From an uncultured Acidobacteriota bacterium (GTDB taxonomy: Bacteria > Acidobacteriota > Vicinamibacteria > Vicinamibacterales > JAKQTR01): DNA of 64,000 bases. This document shows positions 1-29,859 of the stretch, piece after piece; position 1 is the first letter of the stretch, and each line of letters begins with the position of its first letter. Location of the stretch: NCBI GenBank assembly GCA_963813325.1, contig CAWEYM010000001.1, positions 234,523 through 298,522 on the forward strand. The letters are read 5' to 3'. The position numbers were made by a program, and so were the translations under genes. The notes under the pieces are model-generated. The model was not told the origin of the DNA, made no database searches, and saw only the letters and a list, made by a program, of their open reading frames with translations.

Positions 1-163
1 GGTCAACGCGCTCGCCCAGTATCTCGATCTCGAGCCGGTCGAGCGACAGGCGCTGCTCGAATGCGAAGGCGTCGCGGCCCGGTGCCGCGCCCTGGTCGAG
101 CTGCTCGAGATGAAGGTCATCCTGGGCTCGGCGGCGCCCGGCGCGACCTGGTCGTCACACTGA
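1..163 (+). CDS. 3' end of a CDS cut by the window edge; the tail resembles the C-terminus of stand-alone LON N-terminal (substrate-binding) domain proteins
   Basis: Frame 2 is open from the window edge to TGA at 161-163. It reads VNALAQYLDLEPVERQALLECEGVAARCRALVELLEMKVILGSAAPGATWSSH*. The family call is from memory of similar tails and is weak. Confidence 0.4.
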   Translation, partial: VNALAQYLDLEPVERQALLECEGVAARCRALVELLEMKVILGSAAPGATWSSH

Positions 164-264
164 CCCCGGAGCTCTCTTGTGATGAGTACGGTCGGTCCGG
201 GCACGCGGGCTGAAGCCCGCGCGCGACGTTCCCGGTGAGTGCTCAACTCAACTGAGCGCCGGGC
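164..264 (+). repeat. Copy A of a ~100-bp MITE/REP-like intergenic element with imperfect terminal inverted repeats and a central GC hairpin
   Basis: The sequence runs CCCCGGAGCTC...GTGATGAGT...TCCGGGCACGCGGGCTGAAGCCCGCGCGCGAC...TTCCCGG...CTCAACTCAACTGAGCGCCGGG. It matches the reverse complements of 16919-17019 and 29760-29859 block for block. It starts on the base after the TGA at 161-163. Confidence 0.85.
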
Positions 265-302
265 CTGGCGCGGGCAGGCGCGTCATCGGCTACGATCACG
301 AC

Positions 303-1325
303 ATGACCCCACACGTGCACGACCTCCTCATCGTCGGCGCCGGCCCCGCCGGCCTCGCCACGGCCATCGCCGCCGGGCAGGCGGGCTTCGACCACCTCGT
401 CATCGACAAGGGCGGCGTCGTCGACGGCATCTTCCGGTTCCCACGGCACATGGTGTTCTTTACGACGCCGGAGCTGCTGGAAATCGGCGGCCTGCCGTTC
501 GTCAGCCCGTACGAGAAACCCACCCGGCTGGAGGCCCTGAAATACTACCGGCGCGTGGTCGACGCGTGGCGGATCCCGCTCGCGCTCGATGAGACCGTGA
601 TCGCCGTGCGGCCCGCGGCGGACGACGGGACTGCCCGATTCGCGGTGCGCACGCGCCCAGGCCTGGGCGATGAACGCGAACGCCTCGCCCGCGCGCTGGT
701 CCTGGCGACCGGCTACTACGATCATCCGAACCGGCTGGGCATCCCGGGTGAGGACCTCCCGCACGTGTCGCACTACTACACCGAGGCCCATCCCTACTAC
801 CGCCGCGCGGTGGTCGTGGTCGGCGGCAAGAACTCGGCGGCGGAAGCCGCACTCGAGTTGTACCGGTCCGGCGCGCGGGTCACGCTCGTGCACCGCGGCG
901 ATCGCCTCGGCGATTCGATCAAGTACTGGGTGAAGCCCGACATCGAGAATCGCATCGCCGAGGGTACGATCCCGGCCCGGTTCAACACGCGCGTCCGCGA
1001 GATCCGGCGCACGTCGATGGTCGTCGAGACCGAAGGGCGGGTCGACGAGATCCCGGCCGACGCCGTGCTGCTGCTGACCGGCTACCACCCCGACTTCGCG
1101 CTGCTCGAGGCAGCCGGCGTGCGCGTCGACGCCACGCGACGGCAGGCGCAGTACGATCCGGACACATTGGAGACGAACGTACCGGAGCTGTTCCTGGCCG
1201 GCGGGGTGATTTCGGGCCGGGACACGAGCCCGATCTTCATCGAGAACGGGCGCTATCACGGCGAACGGATCGTGCGGACGCTGGCCGCGCGCTGGGGTCG
1301 ACCGGCTCCGGCGGCCGGGGCCTGA
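303..1325 (+). CDS. FAD-dependent pyridine nucleotide-disulfide oxidoreductase, YpdA-family (putative bacillithiol disulfide reductase-like)
   Basis: 340-aa ORF. It has an N-terminal GAGPAG dinucleotide fold, a second VVVVGGKNSAAEAALEL fold, and a FFTTPELLEIGGLPF...KPTRLEALKYYRRV block that I recall from YpdA-type reductases. Confidence 0.75.
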   Translation: MTPHVHDLLIVGAGPAGLATAIAAGQAGFDHLVIDKGGVVDGIFRFPRHMVFFTTPELLEIGGLPFVSPYEKPTRLEALKYYRRVVDAWRIPLALDETVIAVRPAADDGTARFAVRTRPGLGDERERLARALVLATGYYDHPNRLGIPGEDLPHVSHYYTEAHPYYRRAVVVVGGKNSAAEAALELYRSGARVTLVHRGDRLGDSIKYWVKPDIENRIAEGTIPARFNTRVREIRRTSMVVETEGRVDEIPADAVLLLTGYHPDFALLEAAGVRVDATRRQAQYDPDTLETNVPELFLAGGVISGRDTSPIFIENGRYHGERIVRTLAARWGRPAPAAGA

Positions 1326-1569
1326 CCCCGGGCCGATCCAGGACCGCCAATTCCGACCATTTTGGACGGTGCTGACGGGATTCCCGTGCCCGGTCAGCCG
1401 GCCAGGCGCCCACTCAGTCCGCCTTGACGCCCGCCCGCTGAAAAATGCGAGGCGCCGGCGAACCGCCCACCTATCATGAAGTTACACGCGACAGGCAAGG
1501 CCCTCAGGCTCCCGGGCGGGAGCTCCAGTTGCGCCCTGTCGTGCCATCGATTGCAGCGAGGAGAGAGGC

Positions 1570-3663
<2,094 letters not shown>

Positions 3664-3754
3664 CCAGGGCGGCCGGGCGACGCGGGCGGGCCGGTCCCCG
3701 GTCCTCCCGCCTGCCTCGGCCGGGGCCGGCGTGGCCGCCGCACGCGCCACACGG

Positions 3755-4453
3755 TCAGCGGCGGACCGGGGCTCTCTTCGGCGCCTTGCGCGGCACCGGC
3801 TTCTTCGCCGGCGCCTTCTTCGGCTGCGGCTGGTACTCCACCTTGACGTCGCTGATCAGCGCGATCGGCCTCCCGGGCGCGACGAACAGCTCGTCGCCGT
3901 CCGCGCGGCGCACCGCGAGCTTCTCGCCCAGCAGGCACACCTCAGTCACGTTCTCCGGGATCTCCGCCCGCACCGGCTCGTCGCCCGTCGGCGCCACGGC
4001 CTTGACGCCGCTCGGTCCCGCGCCGCCCGACACCCGGTCGAACAGGTCCGCCGCCGTGCGGAACTCGTTCTGCACGACCTCCCGCGTCAGCAGCGTGTTG
4101 TCCATCGTGAGGATGCCGATCGTCGCGGTCAGGCGGGCGTAGGCCTTGCGGGCTCGCACCTGCTCCTCGGAGTAGGTGAACCGGTTGTGGAGATCGAAGG
4201 ACAGGATGGCTGGTCCCTTGTGCGGAGGGATCCGGATCAGGATGCCGTCGGCCGGCGTCCGCCCGATGGGCACGTCACAGAACAGCCGCTTGGTCGTGAC
4301 GCCTGTCCCGAGAGGAGACGGGCACTGGAGGTCGGCCGGCTCCACCTTCGGCGCCGGCGGCGCGGCCGGGCGCCTGGCCGGCTTCCGCGTCTGGGCCGCG
4401 GAAGTGACCAACCCCAAGCCGGTGAACAGGATGGCGGTGAGCAGTCGTCGCAC
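3755..4453 (-). CDS. Secreted hypothetical protein with a Lys/Pro-rich C-terminal tail
   Basis: 232-aa ORF. The N-terminus MRRLLTAILFTGLGLVTSAAQ looks like a signal peptide. There is a conserved Cys pair, and the tail is PKKAPAKKPVPRKAPKRAPVRR. I recognise no family. Confidence 0.6.
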   Translation of the reverse strand: MRRLLTAILFTGLGLVTSAAQTRKPARRPAAPPAPKVEPADLQCPSPLGTGVTTKRLFCDVPIGRTPADGILIRIPPHKGPAILSFDLHNRFTYSEEQVRARKAYARLTATIGILTMDNTLLTREVVQNEFRTAADLFDRVSGGAGPSGVKAVAPTGDEPVRAEIPENVTEVCLLGEKLAVRRADGDELFVAPGRPIALISDVKVEYQPQPKKAPAKKPVPRKAPKRAPVRR

Positions 4454-4545
4454 GTCGTCAGTATAACGCGTCTCGGGCGCGGGCCGGACCGGGTTGCCTC
4501 ACGGCGAACGGTCGTGGTAGCCTCTCGGGTCCGGATGGTATACAG

Positions 4546-5238
4546 ATGGTACGCAAGAACCGCCGCGCCGCCCGCCAGTCCCCGTCCCGCGTCGATCTCG
4601 TCCTCCGCGAACTGAAGCAGCGGATCGCCGACGGCCGGTATCCTCCGGGCACGCCCCTGTCGGAGTCGCAGCTCGCCCGCGACCACGACGCCAGCCGGAC
4701 GCCGGTGCGCGAAGCGTTGTCCCGCCTCGTGCAGGAAGGCTACGTGCAGCGCCTGCCGGGCCGCGGCTACCTCGTCACCCCGATCACCGTTCGCCTCATC
4801 CAGGACACCTTCGAAGTCCGCCGCGTGCTCGAGGGCGCGGCCGCCGCGCGTGCGGCCGCGGACGCCACCGAGGGCGAGATCGCGCAGTTGCGCCAGCTGG
4901 CAGAGTTCCGCTATGCCGTGGGCGACGCCGCCAGCTACCGTTCCGCGCAGACCTACAACCGCAACTTCCACATGGCGGTCGTCGCGGCCAGCCACAACGC
5001 GCTCATCGTGGACCTGGTCCGGCACTGCCTCACGCAGATGGAACGCTTCATGTCCCTGGGCGTGAACTTCGATGCGTTTCAGGGCGGCGCCAGCGTCGAG
5101 CACAACGAGATCGTCGACGCCATCGCCGCCCGCACGGCCGATGCCGCGCGGGCCGCCATGGAGCGGCATCTCGATCGGAGCACGACCCTGCTCATGCGCG
5201 CGCTGGTGCGCGGAGAAATCCCCGGCCTCACGGTGTAG
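4546..5238 (+). CDS. GntR-family transcriptional regulator (FadR/FCD subfamily)
   Basis: 230-aa ORF. The wHTH block is LSESQLARDHDASRTPVREALSRLVQEGYVQRLPGRGYLV, followed by an all-helical FCD-like C-terminal domain. Confidence 0.85.
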   Translation: MVRKNRRAARQSPSRVDLVLRELKQRIADGRYPPGTPLSESQLARDHDASRTPVREALSRLVQEGYVQRLPGRGYLVTPITVRLIQDTFEVRRVLEGAAAARAAADATEGEIAQLRQLAEFRYAVGDAASYRSAQTYNRNFHMAVVAASHNALIVDLVRHCLTQMERFMSLGVNFDAFQGGASVEHNEIVDAIAARTADAARAAMERHLDRSTTLLMRALVRGEIPGLTV

Positions 5239-5240
5239 CC

Positions 5241-6446
5241 TTACGACAGCCACCAGATGCCGAACGCCAGCGTGGCCGCGGTCACCGGAAGGCCGACCCG
5301 CAGGTAGGCCCAGAACGAGATCGCGATCCCCCGGCGGCGGGCGCCTTCGACGACGATCAGGTTCGCGATCGACCCGAGCAGCGTCAGGTTGCCGGCGAGC
5401 GTGCTCGCCATGGCCAGCGCCAGCCACGAGCTGGACGGATCGGGCAGCTGCGGCACGATCCGCGACAGGAGCATCACGGCCGGCACGTTGCTGGCCAGGT
5501 TCGACAACAGCGCCGTGACGATGCTCAGGCCCCAGATCGACTCGACCCCGACCGGCCGCAGGAGATCGAGGAACCGGCGGTCCAGCCCCGCCCGCTCGAT
5601 GCCGGCGATCACCACGAACAGGCCGACGAACAGCATCAGCAGGCCCCAGTCGATCCGCGCGTACACCTTCTGCGGGTTGATCCGCCGCGTCACGAGGAGG
5701 ACGGCGACCGCCGCCGCCGACACCAGCGTCGTATCGATGCCGGCGAGGAAGGCGACGAGCACACCGGCGGCCACGAGCAGCGTCTTGACCGCCACCGCCC
5801 GGTGCGCCGGACGCGTCTCCTCCCGATCCCCGGCCGGCGCCGCGGCCGCGAGCTCGCCCCGGTAGACATACCAGAGGATGCCGGCGTCGATCGCCAGCCC
5901 GACCAGGGCCACGGGGGCCAGGGCCGCCGCGAACGGGCGGTAGCCGATCTGCGACAGGCTGCCAATCAGCATGTTCTGGGGGTTGCCCGTGATCGCGGCC
6001 ACGCTGCCGATGTTCGAGGCGGTCGCAAGGGCCAGGAGGTACGGCTCCGGGCTCTGGCGCCGCGTGCGCGCCACCTCGATCAGGACGGGCGTGAAGACGA
6101 GGCAGATGGTGTCGTTCACGAAGAGCGCCGACAGCGCGCCGGAGGCGAAAACGATCGCGACGAGCAGGCCCGCCGGCTGCCGCACCCGGGACACCACCCA
6201 CGCGGCCGTCGTGCGGAAGAACCGGGCCAGCTGGAGATGGGCGACGAGCACCATCATCCCGAACAACAGGACGAGCGTGCGGTAGTCGATCGCGCGGTAG
6301 GCCTCCTCGAGCGGCAAGCCGCCGACGACCACCATCAGGATCGCCCCGATGATGGCCGCGCCGGTCCGGTCGATCCGGAACAGCGGCGGCTGGCCCAGCG
6401 CGAGCACGAGATAGGTGCCGACGAAGATCAGGGCCGGGGCGATCAT
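5241..6446 (-). CDS. ArsB/NhaD-superfamily anion permease (YbiR-like)
   Basis: 401-aa polytopic ORF. Blocks AIDYRTLVLLFGMMVL and NIGSVAAITGNPQNMLIG are typical of the YbiR/CitMHS-type permease fold. Confidence 0.75.
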   Translation of the reverse strand: MIAPALIFVGTYLVLALGQPPLFRIDRTGAAIIGAILMVVVGGLPLEEAYRAIDYRTLVLLFGMMVLVAHLQLARFFRTTAAWVVSRVRQPAGLLVAIVFASGALSALFVNDTICLVFTPVLIEVARTRRQSPEPYLLALATASNIGSVAAITGNPQNMLIGSLSQIGYRPFAAALAPVALVGLAIDAGILWYVYRGELAAAAPAGDREETRPAHRAVAVKTLLVAAGVLVAFLAGIDTTLVSAAAVAVLLVTRRINPQKVYARIDWGLLMLFVGLFVVIAGIERAGLDRRFLDLLRPVGVESIWGLSIVTALLSNLASNVPAVMLLSRIVPQLPDPSSSWLALAMASTLAGNLTLLGSIANLIVVEGARRRGIAISFWAYLRVGLPVTAATLAFGIWWLS

Positions 6447-6483
6447 GGGTGTGCGGCCGGGCGCCGGACCGGTCGGGCCGTGG

Positions 6484-7035
6484 CTACGACGCGTGCTGGC
6501 GGATCAGTTCCAGGAACTCCGCCCGGGTGCGATCCCGCTCGCGGAACGCGCCCAGCATGGCGCTGGTCACGCAGAACGACCGCTGCTTCTCCACGCCGCG
6601 CATGGCCATGCACAGGTGCGTCGCCTCCATGACGACGGCCACCCCGAGCGGATCGGTCTTCGCCCTGATGGTCTCGGCAATCTGGTTGGTGAGGCGCTCC
6701 TGCACCTGCAGGCGCCGCGCGAACACGTCGACCAGCCGCGGGATCTTGCTGAGGCCGATCACGCGGGTCTTCGGGATGTACGCCACGTGGCACTTCCCGA
6801 AGAACGGCAGCAGGTGGTGCTCGCACAGGCTGAAAAAGTCGATGTCCTTGACGATGACCATCTCGCTGTAGTCGACCGTGAACAGCGCATCGTTCAGGAC
6901 CTCGTCCACGTTGGCGTGGTACCCGCTGGTCAGGAATCCCATGGACTTCGCCACGCGTTGCGGCGTGTCGCGAAGGCCCTCGCGGTCGGGATCCTCGCCG
7001 AGTTCCTGCAGCAGTTGCCGGATGAGAGTCTGCAT
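6484..7035 (-). CDS. folE: GTP cyclohydrolase I
   Basis: The C-terminal 183 aa of ORF 6484..7440 read [31 protein letters not shown]...[18 protein letters not shown]...[18 protein letters not shown] is at 7035. The upstream 135 codons are low-GC and not protein-like. Confidence 0.9.
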
Positions 7036-7424
7036 CCGCGTAGTGTACCCCAGGACCTCCAGCCGGACGGGCGCCAGCGCCTCGCCGGCGACCGTCCGGA
7101 AGAAGAACCGCCGGGCAGCGTGCCGGGAGTCCCTCGCCGCCGGGCGGAACGATGGCAGCCGACCGACGTGGATGCAGAGGAGCAAATCCGACCGCATGGA
7201 TCCATATCGTTGGATCGACGATTCACCAATCCCTTGGATGATTGGCTGAACAGGTTGGTCATGGTCACGTAACATATTGAATCTAAAGAACGAACAGACC
7301 ATGCAAGGTTGGCATCGTGGATGCAATGAGGGGAGTGACTCGGGATCTGCTCTCTCCAGAGGGAAGGCAAGTCCCGAGCTTGTGTTTTGTTGTCTCGTTG
7401 GGTTGCCTGTTGAGGAGGATGGAT

Positions 7425-10422
7425 ATGCGATTTCGGACACTCGCCGTGTTGTTCCTGATGGTGCTGGCGGCGTTGCCGCTGGCCGCGCAGGAGCAGCGGG
7501 CGTCGATCGAGGGCGTCGTCAAGGACGCGTCGGGAGCGGTGCTCCCGGGCGTCACCGTCGAGGCCAAGAATCTCGAGGTCGGCTCGGTCGTCACGGCCGT
7601 CACGGACGGCAACGGGACGTTCCGGTTCCCGGCACTGGCGGCGGGCAACTACGAAGTCACTGCGAACCTGCAGGGCTTCAACACCGCCAAGTCTCAGACC
7701 GTGCCGCTGGCCCTCGGTCAGATCAAGAAAGTCGATCTGGCGTTGAGCGTAGCCGGCGTCGCCGAGAGCGTACAGGTGACGGCCGAGTCGCCGCTCATCG
7801 ACACGAAGCAGAGCGCGCGTGCCACGAGCATCCGCAGCGAGCAGATCGACCTGCTGCCGAAGGGCCGCGATTTCACGACCCTCGTCACGCAGGCCGCGGG
7901 CGCCAACCAGGAGACCAAGCTGGGCGGCATCTCGATTGACGGCGCGAGCGGCGGCGAGAACCGGTACATCGTGGACGGGGTCGAGACGACCAACCTGCAG
8001 AACGGCACGTCCGGCAAGGGCATCATCGCCGACTTCCTCGACGAGGTGCAGGTCAAGTCGAGCGGGTACACCGCCGAGTACGGCGGCGCCACGGGCGGCG
8101 TCATCAACGCGGTGACCAAGAGCGGCACGAACGCGTTCCGCGGCAGCGCGCGGTTCTACTGGACGGGTGACAAGCTCGAGGCCGGCTACAACAAGTCGCT
8201 CCGCCTCGCCCCGGCGAACAGCGATCTCGCCGAGTACCTGGACGTACCCGGAGGACAAGTACAACCGCGTGGAGCCGGGCTTCTCGATCGGCGGCCCGAT
8301 CTGGAAGGACAAGGCGTGGTTCTTCGCGGCGTACCAGCCGACGATGACCAAGACCATCCGCAACGTCTCCCCGGACACCGCGGGGACCACCACGGCGAGC
8401 ACCTTCAGCGACGTCACGCGGAAGGACCAGGCGCACAACTTCTCGGCCAACCAGACGGCGCAGATCGGCAACAGCCTGCGCACGCGCGTGGCCTACAACA
8501 ACAGCTGGGGCAAGCGGATCGGCCTGCTCCCGGCGCAGACGGGCGGAGACGCGGCCGGCACGAACTACGCCATCGACCGGACGTCCCCGAACTGGAGCCT
8601 CTCGGGCCAGGCCGACTGGGTGGTGAGGCCGAACCTGTTCGTCGGCGCGCGAGTCGGGTACTACTTCTCTGACTTCTTCGACGCCGGCGTGCCGGCCGAA
8701 CCGCGCTCGACGTTCTCGTTCAGCAACATCGACTTCGTCGGCACCAATGGCGTCGCCGTACCGGCGGCGTATCAGCACCCCACGGGGTACGCGAGCATCG
8801 CCCCCAACAGCTCGACCACGCGCGACCAGCAGACCCGCCTGAACTTCCAGGTCGATTCGACCCTGTATGTGAACGCGGGCGGCCAGCACACCATCAAGGG
8901 CGGCGTCCAGTTCGACCACGTCGGCAACAACGTGCTGTCGGGCGAACTGGGCAACCGCGTCACGATCCGCTGGGGCCAGCCCCTGCCAAATTACGGGACG
9001 GGGCCCTTCGGCTACTACTCGGTGCGCAGCAACGGCCCGTACCCGAAGCAGGGCTTCATTACGGAAGGCAACGTCACCACCAACAACATCGGCCTGTTCA
9101 TCCAGGACGCCTGGACCGTCAACAACAAGCTGACCGTCAACCTCGGCCTCCGGACCGAGAGTGAGAAGGTCCCGGCGTATTCCTCGGGGCCGGACATTCC
9201 CGCCTATGGCGTCGAATTCCCGTTCAGCGAGAAGCTGGCACCGCGCGTGGGCTTCGCCTATGACCTGAACGGCGACGGCAAGTGGAAGGCTTACGGGTCG
9301 TGGGGCATCTTCTACGACATCTTCAAGCTGGAGCTGCCGCGCGGGTCGTTCGGCGGTGACAAGTGGCTCGAGTACTACTACACGCTCGACACGTACGCGT
9401 GGGACACGCTGACCGCCGGGGCCAGCTGTCCTCCGGCCTGCTCGGGCACGCTCATCCGCGGCCCGATCGACTTCCGGCACCCGTCGTTCGGCTCGGACGC
9501 GATCGACCCGAACCTGAAGCCCATGAAGAGCGAAGAGATGTCGTTCGGCCTCGAGCACCAGCTCTCGCCGACGATGGCCCTCTCGGCCCGGTACGTCCGC
9601 AAGTGGCTGGACAGGGCCATCGAGGACACGGGGTCGCTCGACGCGGAAGGCAACGAGATTTACATCATCGCGAACCCGGGCTTCGGCCTGACCGAGTTGG
9701 CCTACGTCGACCCGAATGTCCCCATGCCGAAGGCGAAGCGGCAGTACGACAGCGTGGAGGTGGCCTTCACGAAGAACCTGTCGGACAGCTGGTACTTCCG
9801 GGGGAGCTACCTGTGGAGCCGTCTCTACGGGAACTACTCCGGCCTGTCGCAGTCCGATGAGAACGGCCGGACCAGCCCGAACGTCGGCCGCGCGTTCGAC
9901 TATCCGGCGATGATGTTCGATGGCAAGGGCCAGGCGGTTTACGGCCCGCTAGCCACTGACCGTCCGCACCAGGTCAAGGCGCAGTTCATCTACCAGCTGC
10001 CCTTCGGCACGTCGATCGGCCTCAACGAGTACATCGCGAGCGGCATCCCGGTGACTCGTGAAGTCGGCATCCTCCCGACGAGCAACTACCCGGTGCAGTA
10101 CCTGGGCCGTGGCAGCGACGGGCGGATGCCGGTCCTCTCACGGACCGACCTGAGCCTCCAGCACGCGTTCAAGGTGGGCGGCAACAAGCAGTTGCAGCTG
10201 GAGCTGAACGTGCTCAACCTGTTCAACCAGCGCATCGCGACCAACCGGTTCATCACCATGCAGAAGGCGGACGGCATCACCTTCGATGAGGCCGCCTTCT
10301 ACCAGGGCCAGGTCAACTTCGACCCATTGATCGCGGCGATGGCGAAGGATCCGCGCTTCCTGATGAACAACGGGTACCAGGATCCTCTGGCGGCCCGCTT
10401 CGGCGTGAGGTTCCTGTTCTAG
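7425..10422 (+). pseudogene. TonB-dependent receptor with N-terminal carboxypeptidase-regulatory-like domain, interrupted by a single frameshift near 8241-8245
   Basis: GGAGG RBS at 7414-7418 and signal peptide [22 protein letters not shown]. The CarboxypepD_reg-like block [18 protein letters not shown] and the plug region are in frame 0 up to ...NSDLAEYLD. The homologous sequence then continues in frame +1 as TYPEDKYNRVEPGFSIGGPIWKDKAWFF and runs to the terminal ...FGVRFLF. Confidence 0.7.
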
Positions 10423-10543: not shown

Positions 10544-12571
10544 CTATTGGCCCGCGACGCGCTCCACGACGATGGAGCGGCTGACCCGGCCGACGATCGC
10601 CCCGCCCCACAGGACGATGGCCCGCACCTGGTAGGCCCCGGGCGAGAGCGACGCCAGGTTGATCGTTCCTTCTGCGTACCATGCCCCGGCTGCCGCGTCG
10701 TCGGCCACCACCGGGACGACGCCGGCCAGCGTCGGGCCATCGGCTCGATCGACCACCTCGAATTGCACCACCGGACGTGCCGCGGCGGCCGCGGCGTCAC
10801 CTCCAGGCAGCAGGCGTCGCATTTCGACATAGGCGGCGACGCTTTGGCCGGTGATCCGCCCGTCGACCACCAGTTTCATCTTGCCGCCGACCCGGACGGC
10901 AGGGTCCGTCAGCACAAGGCTGCTGAGCCCGACGGGGCCTGCCGATGTCAGCCGGGCGTCGAGTTGGCGCTCGACGCCGCCGGCCCGGTTGCCCGAGTCC
11001 ATCGCGACCGCCCGGACGGCGTACTCGCCGGTCTTCACGCTGAAAGTCGAGGTGTAGTAGGCGCAGCGGGCGCCGTCGGGGCGGGACACGAGATCCGTCA
11101 GATGCCGGACGGGCGATCCGGAACCCTGCCCCGCCGCGTTCGTCACGATATGGCCGACGTCGAAGCCGGCTTCGGTCCGGGGGCCGCATCCGATCTCGGC
11201 AGCCAGCAGCACCCGCACGCCGCCGCTTTGGGGATCCGCGACGACGTAGGTGGTCATGTCGATGGGGATGGCGGACGGCAGCGAGGGCGAGTTCAGCGCG
11301 CGCGACAGGCGGTCCGCTACCGGGGCCGTCCGGGTGGCCGGGTCCACGAGGAACTGCTTGCGCGCCCGCACCTGCACGCCGGGCCGCGCCACCTTCACTC
11401 CGACGTTGTGCGTCTTACCGTCGCGGTCGGCGTCGTCAGGCTCGAACGTGAGCACGTAGGAAGCCGACGTCTCCCGCGCAATGCGCGCGAAAGTGGGATC
11501 GAGCGCGGTCGTCAGGTTGAAATACGCGCCTCCGGCCTGGCCCGCCATCTCGGCGAGGCCGTCGTTCAGGAGCCGCGCATCTTCGAGGGGCGTCCGGGTC
11601 GGGAATCGCTCCTTGACGTCGAAGGCCTCGAGAAACGCCCGGTCGATGTGCAGCACGTAGAGGTTGACGCGCGCGGCCTGAGTGAGTCCGCCCAGCCACG
11701 CCAGGTCCGCAATCCCGTCGAGATACCCGTAGGAGCTTCCAGTGACCAGGCTCTCGCCGATGAAGATCATGTACTTCGGGCCGTCGATGAGGCTCAGGCG
11801 GCGGATCAGGATCTCCAGGGACCGCTCGCTCGATTCCGCCGACGTGCGGGCGGCGTAGAACTTGGCGCGGGCATCGGCTTCGAGCGTCGCCCGGCAGTTT
11901 TCATATTCGCTATCCGAACGGGCCCAGATGCACTCCTCCCGGAGCGCCTGGTCCCAGAGGCGCTGCTGGCTGCCGGTGACGAGCGAGAAGGCTTCGCCGA
12001 GGCTGATGTTGGCGTTCGAGAGGTACCGGTGCGCGCCGCCGCCGACGATCTGGAGCAACGCGGCCCGAATCCTCGTCCGGTCGGCCGTGAAGTCCACGGT
12101 GACGCCGGCGGGCAGGGACACGAGGGCCACCAGGTCGTTCGGCGCCAGGTTCCTGACGAACAGCCCTGCTGCCTCCATCGCGCCGCGGCCGCCGCCGCGC
12201 GTCATGTTGCCCGAATCGACGACCAGCACGAACTGCCGTCCCAGGGCGGACGTCGTGTTCGAACTGTATTCCGCGCGCAGCATCACCCGGTCCTCCGGCC
12301 GGAGATTGGGGATGGCCGTGCGATCCGGAGGGGTGGCGGAACGGTCGTTGTGTGTCAGGAACTCGATCGACGCGATTCGCCGGGCTTTCCCGTCCACGGT
12401 GACGGCGAAGTCCTCCAGCCTGAGGTCGGGGATCGGATTCCCGGTCTTGTCCACGACCAGCACATCGACGGCGACCACGTCGATGCCCGAGCGGAAGACC
12501 GGCGGCTGGGGCGCCGCGCCGAGCGATGCCCCGAGGAGCGCAACGGCGAGCGTCAGGCGCAGACCGGACAT
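10544..12571 (-). CDS. Secreted VWA-domain protein (Acidobacterial VWFA-related type)
   Basis: The ORF is 10544..12709. The likely start is ATG at 12571 (MSGLRLTLAVALLGASLGAAPQPPVFRSGIDVVAVDVLVVDKTGNPI), the N-terminal block I recall from the acidobacterial VWFA-related family. A VWA-like core (FVLVVDSGNM) follows. Confidence 0.75.
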   Translation of the reverse strand: MSGLRLTLAVALLGASLGAAPQPPVFRSGIDVVAVDVLVVDKTGNPIPDLRLEDFAVTVDGKARRIASIEFLTHNDRSATPPDRTAIPNLRPEDRVMLRAEYSSNTTSALGRQFVLVVDSGNMTRGGGRGAMEAAGLFVRNLAPNDLVALVSLPAGVTVDFTADRTRIRAALLQIVGGGAHRYLSNANISLGEAFSLVTGSQQRLWDQALREECIWARSDSEYENCRATLEADARAKFYAARTSAESSERSLEILIRRLSLIDGPKYMIFIGESLVTGSSYGYLDGIADLAWLGGLTQAARVNLYVLHIDRAFLEAFDVKERFPTRTPLEDARLLNDGLAEMAGQAGGAYFNLTTALDPTFARIARETSASYVLTFEPDDADRDGKTHNVGVKVARPGVQVRARKQFLVDPATRTAPVADRLSRALNSPSLPSAIPIDMTTYVVADPQSGGVRVLLAAEIGCGPRTEAGFDVGHIVTNAAGQGSGSPVRHLTDLVSRPDGARCAYYTSTFSVKTGEYAVRAVAMDSGNRAGGVERQLDARLTSAGPVGLSSLVLTDPAVRVGGKMKLVVDGRITGQSVAAYVEMRRLLPGGDAAAAAARPVVQFEVVDRADGPTLAGVVPVVADDAAAGAWYAEGTINLASLSPGAYQVRAIVLWGGAIVGRVSRSIVVERVAGQ

Positions 12572-12777: not shown

Positions 12778-14826
12778 ATGCTGGCTGAGGTGGCTGGCCC
12801 GTGCACAGCGGACCGGCCATCGCCGAGCGCAGTCGTGCCAAGACCATCCCGACACCGATCCCGATCCCGCGCGCGCGCATTGCCCGCCGAGCCCCCGCAC
12901 CGAAGCCTGTCGGTCCTGGTGCTCGCGGCCGTGATCGTGGCCGCCGGCACGTGGGCGTACTGGCCGAGTTTCAACGGCGTCTTCGTCCTGGACGACGTGC
13001 GGGCGATTGTGCAGAACCCGACCATTCGAACGCTCTGGCCGCTCACGACCCCGTTGTCGCCTCCCTCGGCGTCCACCGTTGCGGGTCGGCCAGTCGCCAA
13101 TCTCTCCTTTGCTATCAGCTACGCACTTGGTCCGGCAGACGTATCGGGGGCGGCGAGCGGAACACCTGGAATGCCCGGCGTCCCCGGCACGCTGGATGCC
13201 ACCGCCTTTCACCTCGGAAACCTCCTCATTCACCTGGCCACCGCGCTGGTTCTCGCCGGCGTGGTCCGGCGGACGCTGTTGAGCCCGCCGCTCCGCCGCC
13301 GGTTCGAAGTTGTCGCGCCATGGCTCGCGCTGACGATTGCGCTCATCTGGGTGGTCCATCCCCTGCAGACGGCGGCGGTGACGTACCTCGTCCAGCGGGT
13401 CGAGTCCCTGATGGGGCTGTTCTACCTGCTGACGCTCTACTGCGCCATCCGGGCGAGCGGGACCTCGCACGTTCGTGTCTGGACGGCAGCGGCCGTGGTC
13501 AGTTGCGCCGCGGGCATGGCGACGAAGGAAGTGATGGTGACGGCGCCAATCATGGTGGCGCTCTGGGACCGGCTGTTCGGCGCGGCCGTCCCGAACGGGA
13601 CGAGCCGGACGCGATGGGGGCTGCTCGCGGGCCTCGCGGCGACGTGGCTTGTTCTGGGCATCCTGGTCCTGTCCGAGCATCGCGGCCCGTCGATCAGCCT
13701 GGCTCCGGGCATCGTCTGGACGTATCTCCTGACCCAGGCCGACGTCGTGGTGCACTACCTCCGGCTGGTCTTCATCCCCGCCCCGCTCGTGTTCCTGTAC
13801 GACTGGCCGCTCGCGCCCTCGCTCCTCGCGGTGGCGTGGCAGGCAGCATTGCTGACGGCGCTCGTCGTGCTGACGGCCATCGGGGTGGTGCGACGCCACC
13901 CCGCGGGATTCCTGGGAGCGTGGTTCTTTCTGATCCTGGCGCCTTCATCCAGCGTGCTGCCGATTGTGACCGAGGTCGCCGCGGAGCACCGGATGTACCT
14001 GCCGCTGGCTGCGATTGTCGCTGCCGTGGTCATGGGTCTGTTCCGTGCCGGCGGCCGGGTGTCGAAGAACTCGAGGACCGGTGCGGTGCTGGCCGTGGTG
14101 GCGGTCGTCGGGGCGGTCGGGGCGCTGGGCGTCGCGACGCGCGCGAGAAACCGGGTGTACGGGAGCGCCGAGGGCCTGTGGCAGGACACCGTGAGCAACC
14201 GGCCGGACGATGCCAGGCCACGGATTGCGTATGGCGAGGCCCTGGCCAGTGCGGGCCGACTGGCGGAGGCCGAGGCGCAGCTGCAAGTCGGAGTCGCGCT
14301 CGCGCCACAAGACCCGCTCGCGCGCGTGCGGCTCGCGGCGGTGCTCGCGCAGCGGCAGAAGCTCGACGCCGCGATACCGCACCTCGAGCAGGCGTTGACG
14401 CTCCGGCCGGGCGACGTCGATGCGCATCGCTATCTCGGCGAGATCTTCGCCATCCAGCGGCACGACCGCCTCGCGCTGTCGCATTACGAACAGGCGCTCG
14501 CCGCCGTTCCGAATGACGTGGAGGTGCTGGCGAAAATGGCGACGATTCTCGCGGATTCGCGCGACCTGTCGGTGCGTGACGCCGAGCGGGCCGTCGCGCT
14601 GGCCAGCCGGGCCGTGGGCCTGACATCCGGGCGGGAGCCCAGGTTGCTCGAAATCCTGTCGGCGGCGCAGGCGGCGTCCGGCCGGTTCTCCGCCGCCGCG
14701 GCGACGGCGCGAACCGCGCTGGAGCTGGCGCGCGCACGCGGCGACGGCGCGCTGGCGTCCGCGCTCGAGTACCGGGTGTCGGCCTACGAGTACCGGGCGA
14801 GCCAGGCCTCTGGCCCACGGCGCTGA
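12778..14826 (+). CDS. Polytopic membrane protein with C-terminal TPR repeats (TMTC/PMT-like, GT-C-type fold suspected)
   Basis: 682-aa ORF with about 10 hydrophobic segments. The first loop contains VLDDVRAIVQNP. The C-terminal ~200 aa are TPR-like (AYGEALASAGRLAEAEAQLQVGVALAP...). Confidence 0.7.
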   Translation: MLAEVAGPCTADRPSPSAVVPRPSRHRSRSRARALPAEPPHRSLSVLVLAAVIVAAGTWAYWPSFNGVFVLDDVRAIVQNPTIRTLWPLTTPLSPPSASTVAGRPVANLSFAISYALGPADVSGAASGTPGMPGVPGTLDATAFHLGNLLIHLATALVLAGVVRRTLLSPPLRRRFEVVAPWLALTIALIWVVHPLQTAAVTYLVQRVESLMGLFYLLTLYCAIRASGTSHVRVWTAAAVVSCAAGMATKEVMVTAPIMVALWDRLFGAAVPNGTSRTRWGLLAGLAATWLVLGILVLSEHRGPSISLAPGIVWTYLLTQADVVVHYLRLVFIPAPLVFLYDWPLAPSLLAVAWQAALLTALVVLTAIGVVRRHPAGFLGAWFFLILAPSSSVLPIVTEVAAEHRMYLPLAAIVAAVVMGLFRAGGRVSKNSRTGAVLAVVAVVGAVGALGVATRARNRVYGSAEGLWQDTVSNRPDDARPRIAYGEALASAGRLAEAEAQLQVGVALAPQDPLARVRLAAVLAQRQKLDAAIPHLEQALTLRPGDVDAHRYLGEIFAIQRHDRLALSHYEQALAAVPNDVEVLAKMATILADSRDLSVRDAERAVALASRAVGLTSGREPRLLEILSAAQAASGRFSAAAATARTALELARARGDGALASALEYRVSAYEYRASQASGPRR

Positions 14827-14884
14827 GCGGCGCGACCGCCGGCCGGGAACCCCGGCGTGGGGAAGGCAGACGGCCCGGTCCCGC

Positions 14885-16396
14885 TCAGATCTCCTCCACG
14901 TCGATCTGCGCCCGCTGCAGCCGGCCACTGAAGTCCACATAGACCGACTTCCACTCGGAGAACACGTCGAGCGCCGCCTCGCCGGCCTCGCGATGGCCGT
15001 TGCCGGTGTTCTTGGTCCCGCCGAACGGCAGGTGGATCTCGGCGCCGATCGTCGGCGCGTTCACGTAGAACAGCCCCGTGTGCAGGTCCCGCATCGCGCG
15101 GAACGCCGTGTTGATGTCCCTCGTGTAGATGGACGCCGACAGGCCGTACTCGACGCCGTTGGCAATCGCCACGGCTTCGTCGTACGTCTCGAAGGGCAGC
15201 ACCGATACGACCGGGCCGAAGATCTCCTCCTGCGCGATGCGCATGGCCGGCCGGACGTCGGTGAACACCGTCGGCTCGTGGAAGTGGCCCCGCGCGTGCC
15301 GGCCGCCGTCCAGCCGGTGCCCGCCGCACGCCAGCGTCGCCCCTTCGCCGAGGCCGATCGCCACGTACTTCATGACGGTCTCGAGCTGGCCCTGGCTGAT
15401 CGACGGCCCCATCTGGGTGGCCGGATCCAGGCCTGCCCCCACCTGGAGCGTCCTGGCACGGGCGACGTAGCGACGGACGAACTCTTCGTACACGGCCCGC
15501 TGCACCGCCACGCGGCTCGCCGCCGTGCAGCGCTGTCCCGTCGTCCCGAAGCCGCCCCACACGCACCCGTCCACCGCCAGGTCCAGGTCGGCATCGGCCA
15601 TGATGACGATGATGTTCTTGCCGCCCATTTCGAGGTGGACCTTCTTGAAGCTCGGCGCCGCCTTGATGCTGACCATGCGGCCGACGTCCGTGGAGCCGGT
15701 GAACGAGACCACGCTGACTTCCGGCGCCTCGAGAATGGCGTTCCCCACCTCGCCGCCGCCCCCGGTGACGAGGTTCACCACCCCGGGCGGCACGCCCGCG
15801 TCCACCAGCACCTGCACGAAATTCACGGCCGACAGGGGCGTCAGCGTCGCGGGCTTGAACACGACCGTGTTCCCGCAGATGAGCGCCGGCAGAATCTTCC
15901 ACGACGGGATCGCCATCGGGAAATTCCACGGCGTGATGATCCCGCACACGCCCAGCGGCTGCCTGACCGACATCGCGAACTTGTCGCGCAGCTCCGACGG
16001 CGCCGTCTGCCCGTGCTGCCGGCGCCCCTCGCCGGCCATGAAGAACGTCATGTCGATCGCTTCCTGGATATCGCCGCGCGTCTCCTCGAGGACCTTGCCC
16101 ATCTCGCGGGTCATGTCGCGGGCGAACGCCTCCTTGCGCTCGATCAGGAGCTGACCTGCGCGGAACAGGATGTCGGCCCGGCGCGGGGCCGGGACGGCGC
16201 GCCAGCGATCGTACGCGCGGGCCGCCGCGGCGATGGCCCGCCCGGCATCCGCGCGCCCCGATCGGGCGAACAGGCCGATCAGATCGTCCGTGTCGGCGGG
16301 ATTCCGATTCTCGAAAACCTCGCCCGCGGCGGCGGGCACCCACTGCCCGTCGATGAAGTTGCCGTAGGTCGCGACTGGAGCGGTGCTCATGTTCAT
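14885..16396 (-). CDS. NAD(P)-dependent aldehyde dehydrogenase family protein
   Basis: Motifs [22 protein letters not shown] and GQRCTAASR are present. The likely start is ATG at 16396 ([17 protein letters not shown]); the ORF extends to 16447. Confidence 0.9.
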
Positions 16397-16528
16397 GGTC
16401 ACGTACGTCCCATCTGGGGCGTTTCCGCGCACGCGGATACCCGCCAATCATGGCGATTCACGCCGAAAACGCCCGGTTCGTGGCTGGTGCAGTTCTTGAA
16501 TGATAGCAGGACAGGAAGGACGGACGCC

Positions 16529-16918
16529 ATGAACTCCACTCCCCTGCTCCACGTGCATCCCGCGGGCCGTCCGAGCCGCACCGTCATGGTGGTCGACGGC
16601 CCGGGCGCGATCCGGGAGCTGTTCGAGTCGATCATCGAACCGGGGCACTACGACGTGGTGACGGTGGAGTCGGGTGATCGCGCCTACTCCCTGATCAAGC
16701 GCGTCCGGCCCGACCTCGTCATCCTGTGTCTCGGGCTGCACGACACCTCGTCGCTGCAGGTCCTCTCGATGCTCAGGCTCGACCCGGACACGCAGGACAT
16801 CCCGGTCATCACTTACCCGGTCGGGGACGACGACCTGCCGCGCATGGACGACGCGGTCGACGTCCCGGACGACGACTTCTGGCGTCAGGCGCCCGGTCTC
16901 CCGGTCCGCATGCACTGA
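16529..16918 (+). CDS. Single-domain receiver-like (CheY-fold) protein lacking the canonical phospho-acceptor Asp
   Basis: This is the 129-aa tail of ORF 14993..16918 from ATG 16529, with an AGGAAGGA RBS. The REC-like pattern is TVMVVDG...PDLVILCLGL...IPVITY. The position normally occupied by the acceptor Asp reads Cys, and the acidic pair after beta-1 reads DG. Confidence 0.6.
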   Translation: MNSTPLLHVHPAGRPSRTVMVVDGPGAIRELFESIIEPGHYDVVTVESGDRAYSLIKRVRPDLVILCLGLHDTSSLQVLSMLRLDPDTQDIPVITYPVGDDDLPRMDDAVDVPDDDFWRQAPGLPVRMH

Positions 16919-17019
16919 GCCCGGCGCTCAGTTGAGTTGAGGACGCGCCGGGAATGTCGCGCACGGGCTTCAGCCCGCGTGCCCGGAGCGAACACACTCA
17001 TCACACGTGAGCTCCGGGG
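16919..17019 (-). repeat. Copy B of the ~100-bp MITE/REP-like element (inverted relative to copy A)
   Basis: Its reverse complement reads CCCCGGAGCTCACGTGTGATGAGTGTGTTCGCTCCGGGCACGCGGGCTGAAGCCCGTGCGCGACATTCCCGGCGCGTCCTCAACTCAACTGAGCGCCGGGC. It starts on the base after the TGA at 16916-16918. Confidence 0.85.
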
Positions 17020-17090
17020 GCGGTGCGCGCTTGCTGCCGCCCCGGGCCCCGCAGCCGCAGGGCGGCGGGGAGCGAGCCGGCGCGCGCTCG

Positions 17091-20782: not shown

Positions 20783-20983
20783 CGCCGTTACCCCCTACTG
20801 CGATAGGACGAGACCGGGCTGAAATAGTTCCTGCACACTACAACTTACGGCGTTCAGGCCAGGCGCCGGCCGGCGGGGCTGGGTCCCGGAAACCCGCACG
20901 GAAGTCCAGGCTGGTGGAAGCACAACCAAACCCCTATTTTACAATGACTTAACAAATCACCTGACCGTCTGGCTCGGAGGCAA

Positions 20984-21877
20984 TCACTGCTCGAGCACAT
21001 ACTCCCGGCGCTCCACGATCCTCGCGGCCAGCGCCAGGAAGACGACGATGAAGACGAGCAGCCAGGCGGTGGCGGCCCACGGTGACGGAACGTCGCGGAA
21101 CAGGGACTGCAGGATGCCCCCTAGGCCCTCCTGCGGCATGGCATGGGGCACCAGGGCCTGCAGGTAGTAGGCGATGCTGGCGTGCCGCAGGTAGCCCGGC
21201 AGCACCAGGGCGATTTGCTCCCAGCCGAACGCAAACACGAGCCCGGTCACCAGCGGGTGCTTCAGCCCGGCGCCGATCAGGGCGAACAGGGCCCCGTATG
21301 CCGCCAGGCCGAGCGCCAGCAGGATCAGGTCTTTCAGCAGGGCCGGAAACGCCACGGCCAGCGACCCGTGGCCCAGGGGCACCACCAGGAAGAACAGGAT
21401 CGTGACCGACGGCAGCACGACGAACACGGTCGTGACCAGGTAGGCGAGGTACTTCCCGACCAGCACGGCGCCGCGCGGGATGGGCCGGACGAACAGGTAG
21501 GTCAGGGTCTTGTCGTCGACCTCGTCGGCGATGAGCGCGGTGCCGTAGAACACCCCGAGCACCGGCACCATGAACCGCAGGTAGAGCAGCCAGATCATCC
21601 CGCCGAAGATCGTCGGGCCTGGCACCTGCATGCCCTGGGCCTTGACGGATCCGAGCCCCAGCGCCTCGAGCACGCGGAACAGGACCCCCAGCGCGAGCGG
21701 CGACCCGACGACGAGCGCGAGGAAGATCGTGCGCCGCGACCAGAGCATCTGGCCGAGGGACAGATCGAAGATCCGCAGCGAGGCGGCAAGGAACGACGGC
21801 GCGCGCCTGACGGCGGCGGCGGCTCCGGGCGCGGGCGGCGGTGTTCCGGCGGTGGCGTCGGTCATCGTCGTGCTCAC
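20984..21877 (-). CDS. ABC-2-type transporter permease (second permease of the operon)
   Basis: 297-aa polytopic ORF. Its ATG overlaps the stop of the upstream ATPase gene (ATGA at 21874-21877). Confidence 0.75.
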   Translation of the reverse strand: MSTTMTDATAGTPPPAPGAAAAVRRAPSFLAASLRIFDLSLGQMLWSRRTIFLALVVGSPLALGVLFRVLEALGLGSVKAQGMQVPGPTIFGGMIWLLYLRFMVPVLGVFYGTALIADEVDDKTLTYLFVRPIPRGAVLVGKYLAYLVTTVFVVLPSVTILFFLVVPLGHGSLAVAFPALLKDLILLALGLAAYGALFALIGAGLKHPLVTGLVFAFGWEQIALVLPGYLRHASIAYYLQALVPHAMPQEGLGGILQSLFRDVPSPWAATAWLLVFIVVFLALAARIVERREYVLEQ

Positions 21878-28676: not shown

Positions 28677-29729
28677 TCACAGCTTCAGCGACGGGTCCGC
28701 GTTGAGGTCCCAGCCCGCGCGGATGCCCGCGTGGAAGGCGCGCAGGCCGGCCGCCGCGATCATCGCGGCGTTGTCGGTGGACAGGGCCAGGCTCGGCACG
28801 AGCACGGGCACGCCGAGCTCGGCGCCGCGGACGGCCGCCTCGGCCCGGAGCCGGCTGTTGGCCGACACGCCGCCGGCGATGCCGATGCTGCGCGCGCCGA
28901 ACCACCACGCCGCGCCGAACGTGCGGCCCAGCAGCGCCCCGACGGCGGCCCGCTGAAAGCTCGCGCACACGTCGGCGATCTCGGCGTCGCCGGGCGTCCA
29001 CCCCGCAGGCCGCTCCCTCACGTAGCGCAGGACCGACGTCTTGAGCCCGCTGAAACTGAAGTCCCACTGGCCCTTCACGAGCGGCGCGTTGCGATCGGGA
29101 TGGGTCATCCGCGCCACGGGAAAGTCGATCGCGCGATCGTTGCCCGCCCGGGCCAGCCGGTCGATCACCGGCCCTCCCGGGTAGCCCAGGCCCAGCAGCT
29201 TGGCGACCTTGTCGTAGGCCTCCCCCGCCGCGTCATCGCGCGTGCGGCCGAGCAACCGGTAGTGCCCCGGCTCGCGCACCTCGTACAGGCTCGTGTGGCC
29301 TCCGGACACCACGAGGACGACGGCGGGCAGCGGGGCGACCCCGTTGTGCAGGCAGAGCGATTCGATGTGGCCCGCGAGGTGGTTCACCGGCACGAGCGGC
29401 AGCCGCCACGACGCGGCCAGAGACTTGGCGAACGACACGCCGACGAGGAGGGACCCCACGAGGCCCGGGCCCTGGGTCACGGCCACCGCGCCCAGGTCGC
29501 CCGGTTCCGCGCCCGCCTCGGCCAGCGCCCGCTCGGTCACGCCGCAGATGTCACGGACGTGCTGGCGGGACGCCAGCTCGGGCACCACGCCGCCCCACTC
29601 CCGGTGGATGTCCACCTGCGAGGCGACGACGCTGGACCTGATCGCCCAGGGACGCTGCGGATCGCCCGTCTCGGCCACGACGGCCGCGGCGGTCTCGTCG
29701 CAGGAGGTCTCGATGCCCAGGATCAGCAC
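28677..29729 (-). CDS. tsaD: tRNA N6-adenosine threonylcarbamoyltransferase
   Basis: The N-terminus is [18 protein letters not shown]. The blocks VNHLAGH and LVVSGGHT are present. Length is 350 aa. Confidence 0.95.
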
Positions 29730-29759
29730 GGGCCAGCCTCTGCGCCTAAGCCCGCCGCT

Positions 29760-29859
29760 CCCGGCGCTCGGTTGAGTTGAGGACTCGCCGGGACCGTGGC
29801 GCGCAGGCGTCAGCCCGCGTGCCCGAAGCGAACATACCCATCACCAGTGAGCTCCGGGG
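29760..29859 (-). repeat. Copy C of the ~100-bp MITE/REP-like element (more diverged)
   Basis: Its reverse complement reads CCCCGGAGCTCACTGGTGATGGGTATGTTCGCTTCGGGCACGCGGGCTGACGCCTGCGCGCCACGGTCCCGGCGAGTCCTCAACTCAACCGAGCGCCGGG. It abuts the mtnA stop codon (29860-29862) and lies 30 bp upstream of the tsaD start. Confidence 0.8.

Follow-up and report, generated by a model that had tools for sequence, protein, structure and literature searches.

A dispersed three-hairpin repeat of about 105 bp in Acidobacteriota whose tips coincide with the stop codons of adjacent genes, very probably a small mobile element

The window analysed here, a 64-kb stretch of the genome of an uncultured Acidobacteriota bacterium (contig CAWEYM010000001.1), contains three copies of a repeat of about 105 nt, called A, B and C, each of which carries the stop codon of an adjacent gene in one of its tips. 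This repeat is very probably a small non-autonomous mobile element of the class that comprises MITEs (miniature inverted-repeat transposable elements) and repetitive extragenic palindromes (REPs). The reading we favour, at a probability of roughly 0.55, is a MITE/REP composite of about 105 bp that targets TA or CTAG, has 15-nt inverted ends and forms three hairpins (H1, H2 and H3 from left to right). Its preference for gene ends is best explained by that choice of target in a genome very rich in G+C at third codon positions (GC3), and not by recognition of gene ends as such. The family is previously undescribed, having no Rfam match and no counterpart in the literature searched, and it adds a fresh case to an already known kind of small palindromic mobile repeat; the system as such is not of a new kind.

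The original prediction, made from the letters of the window, had placed three copies where we find them and had listed blocks shared by all of them, and both statements hold in the alignment. When set in one orientation the copies have about 85% mean column identity over about 105 nt, and CCCCGGAGCTC, GTGATG, CGGGCACGCGGGCTGA, TCCCGG, CTCAACTCAAC and GAGCGCCGGG are invariant across the three. A 21-mer from the core, allowing up to 3 mismatches, occurs three times in the window against 0.02 times expected from shuffles, and a hidden Markov model of the family found no fourth copy there. The element had been thought to begin one base after a stop codon; all three TGA codons are present, but the stop triplet lies inside the conserved terminal motif. 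The stop-bearing arm of copy B is the opposite one from that of copies A and C. Each copy lies between same-strand genes, and the distance from its far tip to the next same-strand start is 34 nt for copy A (ATG at 303), 83 nt for copy B (a PilZ gene, ATG at 17107) and 25 nt for copy C (tsaD, GTG at 29729).

These three copies are by no means the only ones. A scan of species-representative genomes with a core 20-mer gave at least 58 loci, about half of which are full-length copies in the acidobacterial metagenome-assembled genomes (MAGs) CAWFQE01, CAWJJY01 and CAVOHU01 (Microflora-Danica), and a metagenome scan gave 13 further loci in JGI metagenome contigs. By nhmmer the window, the three acidobacterial MAGs and the JGI contigs together hold at least 43 copies, at least 39 of them non-redundant; this and the other family counts below (27/39, 29/30 and so on) are among the matches listed. 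Most of the 20-mer matches outside Acidobacteriota are not copies, since they fall inside coding sequence of other phyla; the exception to this explanation is one match in the planctomycete Urbifossiella. Spread across phyla by way of an "Ignavibacteriota" locus (L055, contig CAVZMI010000029.1) was rejected because the contig is chimeric: within its positions 1–8000 the GC content falls from about 68% to about 40% near position 1900, and it looks like a mis-join of an acidobacterial fragment, with an era-like gene and one copy of the element, onto a low-GC genome. From these sequence matches the family, found in Vicinamibacteria-like hosts, is so far confined to Acidobacteriota, and a search of viral contigs and plasmids gave no copy. 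The element is non-coding; in the consensus all entering frames meet a stop within 17 codons. In about 400 kb of acidobacterial sequence no half-unit was found standing alone, and this speaks for an element with two ends rather than for separate REP monomers.

Some copies are incomplete. Two 5'-partial copies in the same orientation (7925–7979 and 8994–9065 of locus L075) flank an opposite-strand gene for a 303-aa tetratricopeptide repeat (TPR) protein; this arrangement was considered as an autonomous element and rejected, because a TPR protein is not a transposase. Further copies truncated after H2 lie in L029, L041 (its second copy) and L054, and no 3'-only partials were seen. We also note that orthologous genes in two MAGs (3057–3705 of L015 and 3465–4248 of L020) each have an element nearby, in opposite orientation and with different genes abutting it, and the two copies are independent insertions in one neighbourhood.

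With the flanks aligned, the left end of the element reads C-T-(A/G)-(A/G)-(T/C)-CCCGG(G/A)GCTC and the right end GAGCGCCGGG-(A/C/G)-T-(T/C)-A-G, or in short form C-T-R-R-Y-CCCGG ... CCGGG-R-Y-Y-A-G. The termini, described earlier as imperfect inverted repeats, form a 15-nt inverted repeat in the family alignment, the left CTAATCCCGG(G/A)GCTC matching the reverse complement of the right end CTAATCCCGGCGCTC. The outermost bases are C-TA ... TA-G in the best-preserved copies, and these flanks are found in most copies of the youngest subfamily; many other tips read TG or CA.

The family is notable for how its tips coincide with stop codons. Coding open reading frames (ORFs) were called from the strong pattern of G+C at the three codon positions (GC1/GC2/GC3) of these genomes, and the tip triplet is the in-frame stop of such an ORF in 27 of 39 copies (~70%). 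Random placement in the same loci reaches an in-frame stop in 25 of 40,000 trials (0.06%). When coding ORFs that run up to a tip are considered, 29 of 30 end on precisely that triplet (27 of 28 without duplicate loci), and neither of the other frames is used. All ten tip-ending ORFs that were tested by Pfam have full-length domains, among them rpsB, prfB, argG, dinB and arginase, so the ORF calls are sound and the genes are not truncated. At two loci, L027 and L069/L066, both tips are used by convergent genes. The stops found at tips are TAA (12), TAG (5) and TGA (11); among ordinary stops TAA has a share of about 10%. Of the left tips that serve as stops in MAG CAWFQE, 4 of 6 are TAG, and of the right tips 5 of 6 are TAA; the identity of the stop thus follows the tip, which indicates that at least its third base is supplied by the element. 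A tip in use is always a stop; one not in use drifts, as in four CAWFQE copies where it has become TGG. About 30% of copies adjoin no gene end yet keep the same tips, the orientation of the element relative to the abutting gene is about 50:50 (~13:11), and in each copy whose tip is used the stop is followed, 2 nt on, by the start of H1.

Base composition offers a reason why a mobile element might land on stop codons. The window is 69.8% GC, and the host genomes are about 65–70% GC with about 90% GC at third codon positions, so that T-A-R in frame occurs only as a stop and TA out of frame is rare. The tetranucleotide CTAG occurs 5 times in the 64-kb window against about 176 expected from base composition, a depletion of about 35-fold; CTAA/TTAG also occurs 5 times. 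Both are about 30–35-fold below expectation, against a depletion of only about 2-fold for TA as a whole. Of the five CTAG sites in the window three are gene stops, and in other loci the proportions are 10/41 and 5/15. Elements of the IS630 family insert at TA and duplicate it (PMC2170065), and the preference of IS630 for TA within CTAG is given in the title of a paper in the references of that article (Tenzen & Ohtsubo 1991).

We propose that the element integrates at TA, preferably inside the CTAG palindrome, as IS630/Tc1-mariner-type elements do. CTAG and CTAA sites are very rare in these genomes, and a large share of those that survive are the C+TAG stops of genes on either strand. Since a purine follows TA at both ends of the element, the junctions would read C-TA-R, and a stop split by insertion would be rebuilt in the same frame and at the same position. 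Insertions at stops would then be harmless and persist, and those within genes would be lost. After insertion, selection would hold the used tip as TAA, TAG or, by an A-to-G change, TGA, and the unused tip would decay, for example to TGG. The element would be co-transcribed with its gene and place a GC-rich hairpin 2 nt past the stop; like the REPs near stops in E. coli, this hairpin may affect how translation terminates or how stable the mRNA is, although the pattern does not require it. Insertion with C-TA-R junctions would account at once for four things: why the frame is exact, why TAA is in excess, why the codon depends on the tip, and why convergent genes that shared one CTAG use both tips. 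One of the two possibilities offered by the original prediction, a mobile but non-autonomous element that prefers the 3' ends of genes, is thus upheld as to mobility, by the dispersed family, the inverted ends, the absence of the element between mtnA and tsaD in relatives (below) and the ~70% of copies on stops; a preference for gene ends as such is explained better by the choice of TA or CTAG as target.

Copy C, at the junction of mtnA and tsaD, bears on mobility. The four closest of the relatives fetched (L059, L062, L080 and L081) have no element at this junction, and their two genes overlap or are at most 21 nt apart; a fifth relative, L060, has an unrelated low-complexity spacer there. 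The window MtnA is 355 aa long and its orthologues without the element 353–355 aa, so the stop in the tip of copy C stands at about the ancestral stop position. From this comparison of sequences copy C is a lineage-specific insertion into the mtnA–tsaD junction. We note that L060 has short tandem repeats in place of the element at both positions that match window copies, 11048–11151 (copy C) and 20970–21047 (copy B), with units GGAGCAA / ATCCCGA and GGGAACA / GGGGACA heptamers. The C-terminal tails of MtnA orthologues P0002, P0007, P0010, P0030, P0054 and P0099 are nearly identical (HADPGH, HAHPGHRNVV and similar). Such tails (HADPGHRDVV and similar) were considered as peptides encoded by the element and rejected, because mtnA there overlaps the conserved 5' end of tsaD (MLILGIE...), which is read in another frame; the overlap stretches behind the shared tails are 11037–11068 of L059 and 11070–11089 of L062.

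Several observations weigh against insertion at TA by an enzyme of the IS630 type. None of the six window tips retains TA, and four unused left tips in one MAG all read CTGGT, which would need frequent decay of TA to TG. In about a third of copies an interior TA (columns 23–24 of the alignment of copies) has turned into TG, and rapid decay of the tip TA is therefore plausible, though not proven; at 85% identity the window copies are old, none of their tips has kept its TA and the three used ones now read TGA, in keeping with the 5% share of TAA among stops in the window genome. The relatives that lack copy C have only about 85% protein identity, so the junction is unreadable to the base and the TA duplication is deduced rather than seen, and an all-against-all comparison of copy flanks in the fetched loci found no filled/empty pair. 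Neither an autonomous element with matching ends nor a long-spaced pair of such ends was found in the 660 kb searched, and the full-length insertion sequence (IS) with the same terminal repeats that had been envisaged earlier is likewise absent there. Finally, the centre of the element is a GTAG-type REP, REPs are linked to REP-associated tyrosine transposases (RAYTs, of the Y1 type) and not to DDE enzymes, and the ends of GTAG REPs are already known to provide TAG stops (PMC3733652). The TA duplication, the type of transposase and an RNA-level effect are points that we infer.

One IS does lie beside copies of the element. It is about 1.5 kb long (3198–4691 of L006; from 6998 in L004) and is inserted at the identical position of the right arm in two copies, in opposite orientations; it has a DDE_Tnp_1 transposase, inverted ends CTCATGAT..CACATCTCC and, around the L006 insertion, a 9-bp direct repeat GAGCGCCGG. 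It was rejected as the mobilising partner, its ends being unrelated and its target duplication being 9 bp. By analogy with ISs that target REPs, it suggests an IS that targets the 105-bp repeat, and repeated insertion at one spot is a habit of REP-targeting ISs.

The supported structure of the element is three side-by-side local hairpins. In alignment columns H1 pairs 7–18 with 32–43, H2 pairs 44–52 with 57–65 and H3 pairs 73–80 with 98–105; with this model 88.9% of cells pair and the covariation score is above all 500 shuffles, with the caveat that the copies are related and the changes few. Compensatory changes, for which a check had been proposed, are indeed found in the local hairpins: in H1 the pair of columns 12 and 38 is GC in 14 copies and AU in 6, and in H3 the pair of columns 76 and 102 is GC in 21 copies and AU in 3. 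RNAalifold independently gives three local hairpins, and the minimum-free-energy fold of a single sequence is one long hairpin. Pairing of the termini with each other was rejected, since column 12 never pairs with column 100, the three copies with A76 break their pair, and the covariation of that model is not above shuffles (90/500 for score). The central hairpin of the fold first proposed is therefore supported, and its nesting in a CCGGG/CCCGG stem closed by the termini is not, as covariation favours the local hairpins. H1 and H3 are inverted copies of each other and neither is a GTAG REP. Mismatches in H2 are A-C on the plus strand of the element and G-U on the other strand, and in H3 the reverse is true; together with the ~13:11 orientation this means that neither strand is consistently the RNA.

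Rfam scans at gathering score of the window and of L027/L034 gave no match except one tRNA elsewhere, and a scan of copy A at E<=10 gave chance-level matches only. A k-turn of the C/D-box type (GTGATGA ... CTGA) and a CTGATGA-like hammerhead core were considered and dropped, because the "D box" is CCGA or something else in most copies, the motifs sit in hairpin loops and Rfam found neither. The statement that the repeat is not a named repeat or RNA family holds as far as Rfam is concerned and fails for the central hairpin, which is a GTAG-type REP. Read on the reverse strand, H2 is GTAG-CGCGCGGGC-TTCA-GCCCGCGTG, with GTAG intact in L027, L029, L033, L041, L042 and L054; elsewhere the tag is degenerate (GTCG or GTGG in the window, GGAG in CAWFQE). 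Taking a REP as an imperfect palindrome of 20–40 nt with a GTAG-like tag at one end, only the central hairpin is one, the outer hairpins being tagged CTAR, and with a single GTAG REP per unit the element is not a REPIN, which has two inverted REPs.

This REP core is the basis of the alternative that fares best, one that we regard as possible but clearly the less probable: a REP-type composite, with a central GTAG REP and two inverted CTAR-tagged stem-loops, mobilised by a RAYT (Y1/HUH) transposase, which would be copied as single-stranded DNA without target duplication and whose tag would supply the stop as in GTAG REPs. It gains from the intact tags of H2 just listed, from the far greater variability of the A/G positions of the tips than of the interior, from the double IS insertion at one spot, and from precedent. 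In GTAG REPs the termini often supply a TAG stop to flanking ORFs and the second and third bases of the tag degenerate; there are also composites in which a REP is joined to an unrelated stem-loop, found in hundreds of copies and as inverted repeats that flank RAYTs (Di Nocera et al. 2013, PMC3733652), so the behaviour of the 105-bp repeat is not without parallel. It gains too from REPs like H2 beside a RAYT. When 13 RAYT/TIRYT sequences (supplement of PMC3733652) were compared by phmmer with the ORFs of the window and fetched loci, the single match was a 141-aa Y1 transposase (Y1_Tnp) of Urbifossiella in L007. The repeats that flank it read GTAG-CCGCGGGC-TTCA-GCCCGCGTGCCC; the REP (GTAGCCGCGGGCTTCAGCCCGCGTGCCC) and H2 have a 23-nt run in common, but 19 of those bases are fixed by the search pattern. 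A compensated variant of the H2-type REP flanks another RAYT, P0167 in L076. Lastly, the window itself carries canonical GTAG REPs, a cluster of three that sits between two convergent genes, whose ends at 61139 (+) and 61364 (−) leave a spacer of 225 nt. The three are GTAG-CCCCGCGGC-TTCA-GCCGCGGGG, GTGG-CCCCCGGGC-TTCA-GCCCGGGGG and a variant with a TTTCA loop, and two of them share a longer flank (CTACGTG.GTTGCGCCGAG); the window genome thus carries ordinary REPs of the kind that forms H2.

What tells against mobilisation by a RAYT is, in the first place, that the phmmer search of the window and of all loci that bear the element gave no such gene, and that the fetched RAYT loci of P0167 and P0226 have GTAG REPs of their own and no copy of the 105-bp element. 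The outer tags are CTAR, not GTAG, there is one REP per unit and no REPIN doublet, and singleton units, usual in most REP families, were not found. TA duplication would naturally give both the symmetric C-TA ... TA-G flanks and tips that serve two convergent genes, for neither of which Y1 transposition offers a stated basis. We note that the Urbifossiella sp. MAG (2790–3680 of L007 and 60–165 of L039) has a textbook REPtron, with the RAYT at 3086–3511, four GTAG REPs upstream and two downstream; that a truncated copy of the element in L029 is followed directly, at 7234–7270, by a REP of a different GTAG family (GTAGGGGCGACCCGGCGGGTCGCCC); and that a similar REP, GTAG-GGGCGGAG...CTCCGCCC, flanks RAYT P0226 in L079.

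An unlikely extension of the favoured reading is that the repeat homes on stop codons, its tips having evolved as stops on both strands that replace the stop of any gene or those of two convergent genes, with the hairpin, 2 nt past the stop, as a regulator that would act generally in Vicinamibacteria on termination, trans-translation or mRNA stability. Such an element may combine a DDE-style module for insertion at TA with a REP core that is recognised by a RAYT.

It is more doubtful still that the repeat is a selected cis-acting RNA module at the stop, tuning termination, trans-translation or the stability of the 3' end of the upstream cistron, so that its position would reflect selection for function and not choice of target. 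H1 lies 2 nt past the stop, so a ribosome must melt it to terminate, and in E. coli REPs near stops make ribosomes stall and reduce expression (Liang et al. 2015, cited in PMC12306157). Compensatory changes keep the three hairpins, G-U pairs are present, and copies lie inside operons (mtnA–tsaD) and behind rpsB, prfB and argG. Yet either strand is transcribed about equally often though the strands differ, H2 pairing better on one and H3 on the other; the ~30% of copies that adjoin no gene end keep the same tips, the host genes are functionally unrelated and there is no Rfam match. Selection alone would also leave the 29:1:0 distribution of frames and the tip-dependent stop unexplained. By analogy, a secondary RNA-level effect of the stop-proximal H1 is possible. 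A bidirectional intrinsic terminator copied around the genome, the structured module that was the other suggestion of the original prediction, is very improbable in spite of GC-rich hairpins downstream of genes in either orientation, because no T-run (U-tract) follows any of the three window copies in the direction of transcription, copy C lies in a conserved operon junction between genes that overlap in relatives and so are probably co-transcribed, the next gene on the same strand starts only 34 nt (copy A) and 25 nt (copy C) downstream, and the orientation is ~50:50.

The features of the window are collected in Table 1. The ORF fragment upstream of copy A has GC values of 0.77/0.45/0.89 at the three codon positions, a coding signature, and its 53 aa gave no match in a Pfam search. 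The gene that ends on copy B can be read as a 641-aa ORF (14993–16918), which is an artefact of high GC and lies mostly opposite the ORF at 14784–16451(−); only its last 127 codons are the real gene. The window MtnA is 80–86% identical to proteins labelled Acidobacteria or Vicinamibacterales.

Table 1. Copies of the 105-bp repeat, their parts and associated features in the 64-kb window
Feature	Positions	Strand	Remarks
Copy A, whole element with both tips	160–268	+	
Copy A, left tip	160–164	+	C160-TGA(161–163)-C164; stop of upstream gene
Copy A, right tip	264–268	+	CCTGG, degenerate
Copy A, hairpin H1	165–201	+	arms 165–176 and 190–201; ~8 bp paired in copy A
Copy A, hairpin H2	202–227	−	arms 202–210 and 215–223, loop TGAA, tag 224–227; minus strand a GTAG-type REP, GTCG-CGCGCGGGC-TTCA-GCCCGCGTG
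Copy A, hairpin H3	231–263	+	arms 231–238 and 256–263
Copy B, whole element, inverted	16915–17023	−	
Copy B, right tip	16915–16919		on plus strand C16915-TGA(16916–16918)-G16919; stop of response-regulator gene
Copy B, left tip	17019–17023		degenerate
Copy B, hairpin H3	16920–16952		
Copy B, hairpin H2	16960–16981		
Copy B, hairpin H1	16982–17018		
Copy C, whole element, inverted	29755–29863	−	
Copy C, left tip			contains minus-strand TGA 29860–29862; stop of mtnA
Copy C, right tip	29755–29759		degenerate
Copy C, hairpin H1	29822–29858		
Copy C, hairpin H2	29800–29821		
Copy C, hairpin H3	29760–29792		
Three GTAG-type REP hairpins	61168–61330		related context, not copies of the element; same loop as H2
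3' end of gene stopping on copy A left tip	2–163	+	cut by window edge
Single-domain response-regulator gene	16535–16918	+	127 aa, PF00072; stops on copy B tip
mtnA (methylthioribose-1-phosphate isomerase)	29860–30927	−	Pfam IF-2B; stops on copy C tip
tsaD	28677–29729	−	downstream of copy C; overlaps or abuts mtnA in relatives without the element

The family is a clear natural case of how choice of target and genome composition can steer a mobile element onto stop codons without harm to genes. In the annotation of MAGs of Acidobacteriota, an abundant and poorly studied soil phylum, about 70% of copies mark a real gene end, and gene calling across the element will yield spurious ORFs and "intergenic RNAs". 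A strong hairpin at a fixed 2 nt behind the stops of housekeeping genes (rpsB, prfB, argG) makes these bacteria convenient for testing the effects of stop-proximal hairpins, and a REP core within inverted-repeat arms bears on the relationship between REPs and MITEs.

Three known systems invite comparison. Those REPs of E. coli whose distance from a stop is at most 15 nt make ribosomes stall and reduce expression (Liang, Rudd & Deutscher 2015, cited in PMC12306157), and they likewise put a stable hairpin near the stop of the upstream gene; the present repeat differs in its constant spacing of 2 nt and in containing the stop itself. The IS630/Tc1-mariner-type MITEs RUP of Streptococcus pneumoniae and Correia/NEMIS of Neisseria are likewise about 100–150 bp long, non-coding and multi-copy, and have terminal inverted repeats; TA flanks and co-transcription with neighbours are features of those MITEs (PMC2229807, PMC2170065). 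Our repeat differs from them in lacking sequence similarity and a cognate IS630-family element among those found, in its GTAG REP centre and in its high-GC acidobacterial hosts, and the review PMC2229807 reports no coincidence with stops, here ~70%, for either RUP or Correia. It differs from GTAG REPs, their head-to-head dimers and REP plus stem-loop composites (PMC3733652), and from REPINs, in being a fixed 105-bp unit of three hairpins with CTAR outer tags and one REP, with no singletons and no linked RAYT found. With these it shares GC-rich tagged hairpins downstream of ORFs, unidirectional or convergent, tags degenerate at the A/G positions and termini that give flanking ORFs their stops, and its H2 is nearly identical to REPs that flank a RAYT in a planctomycete.

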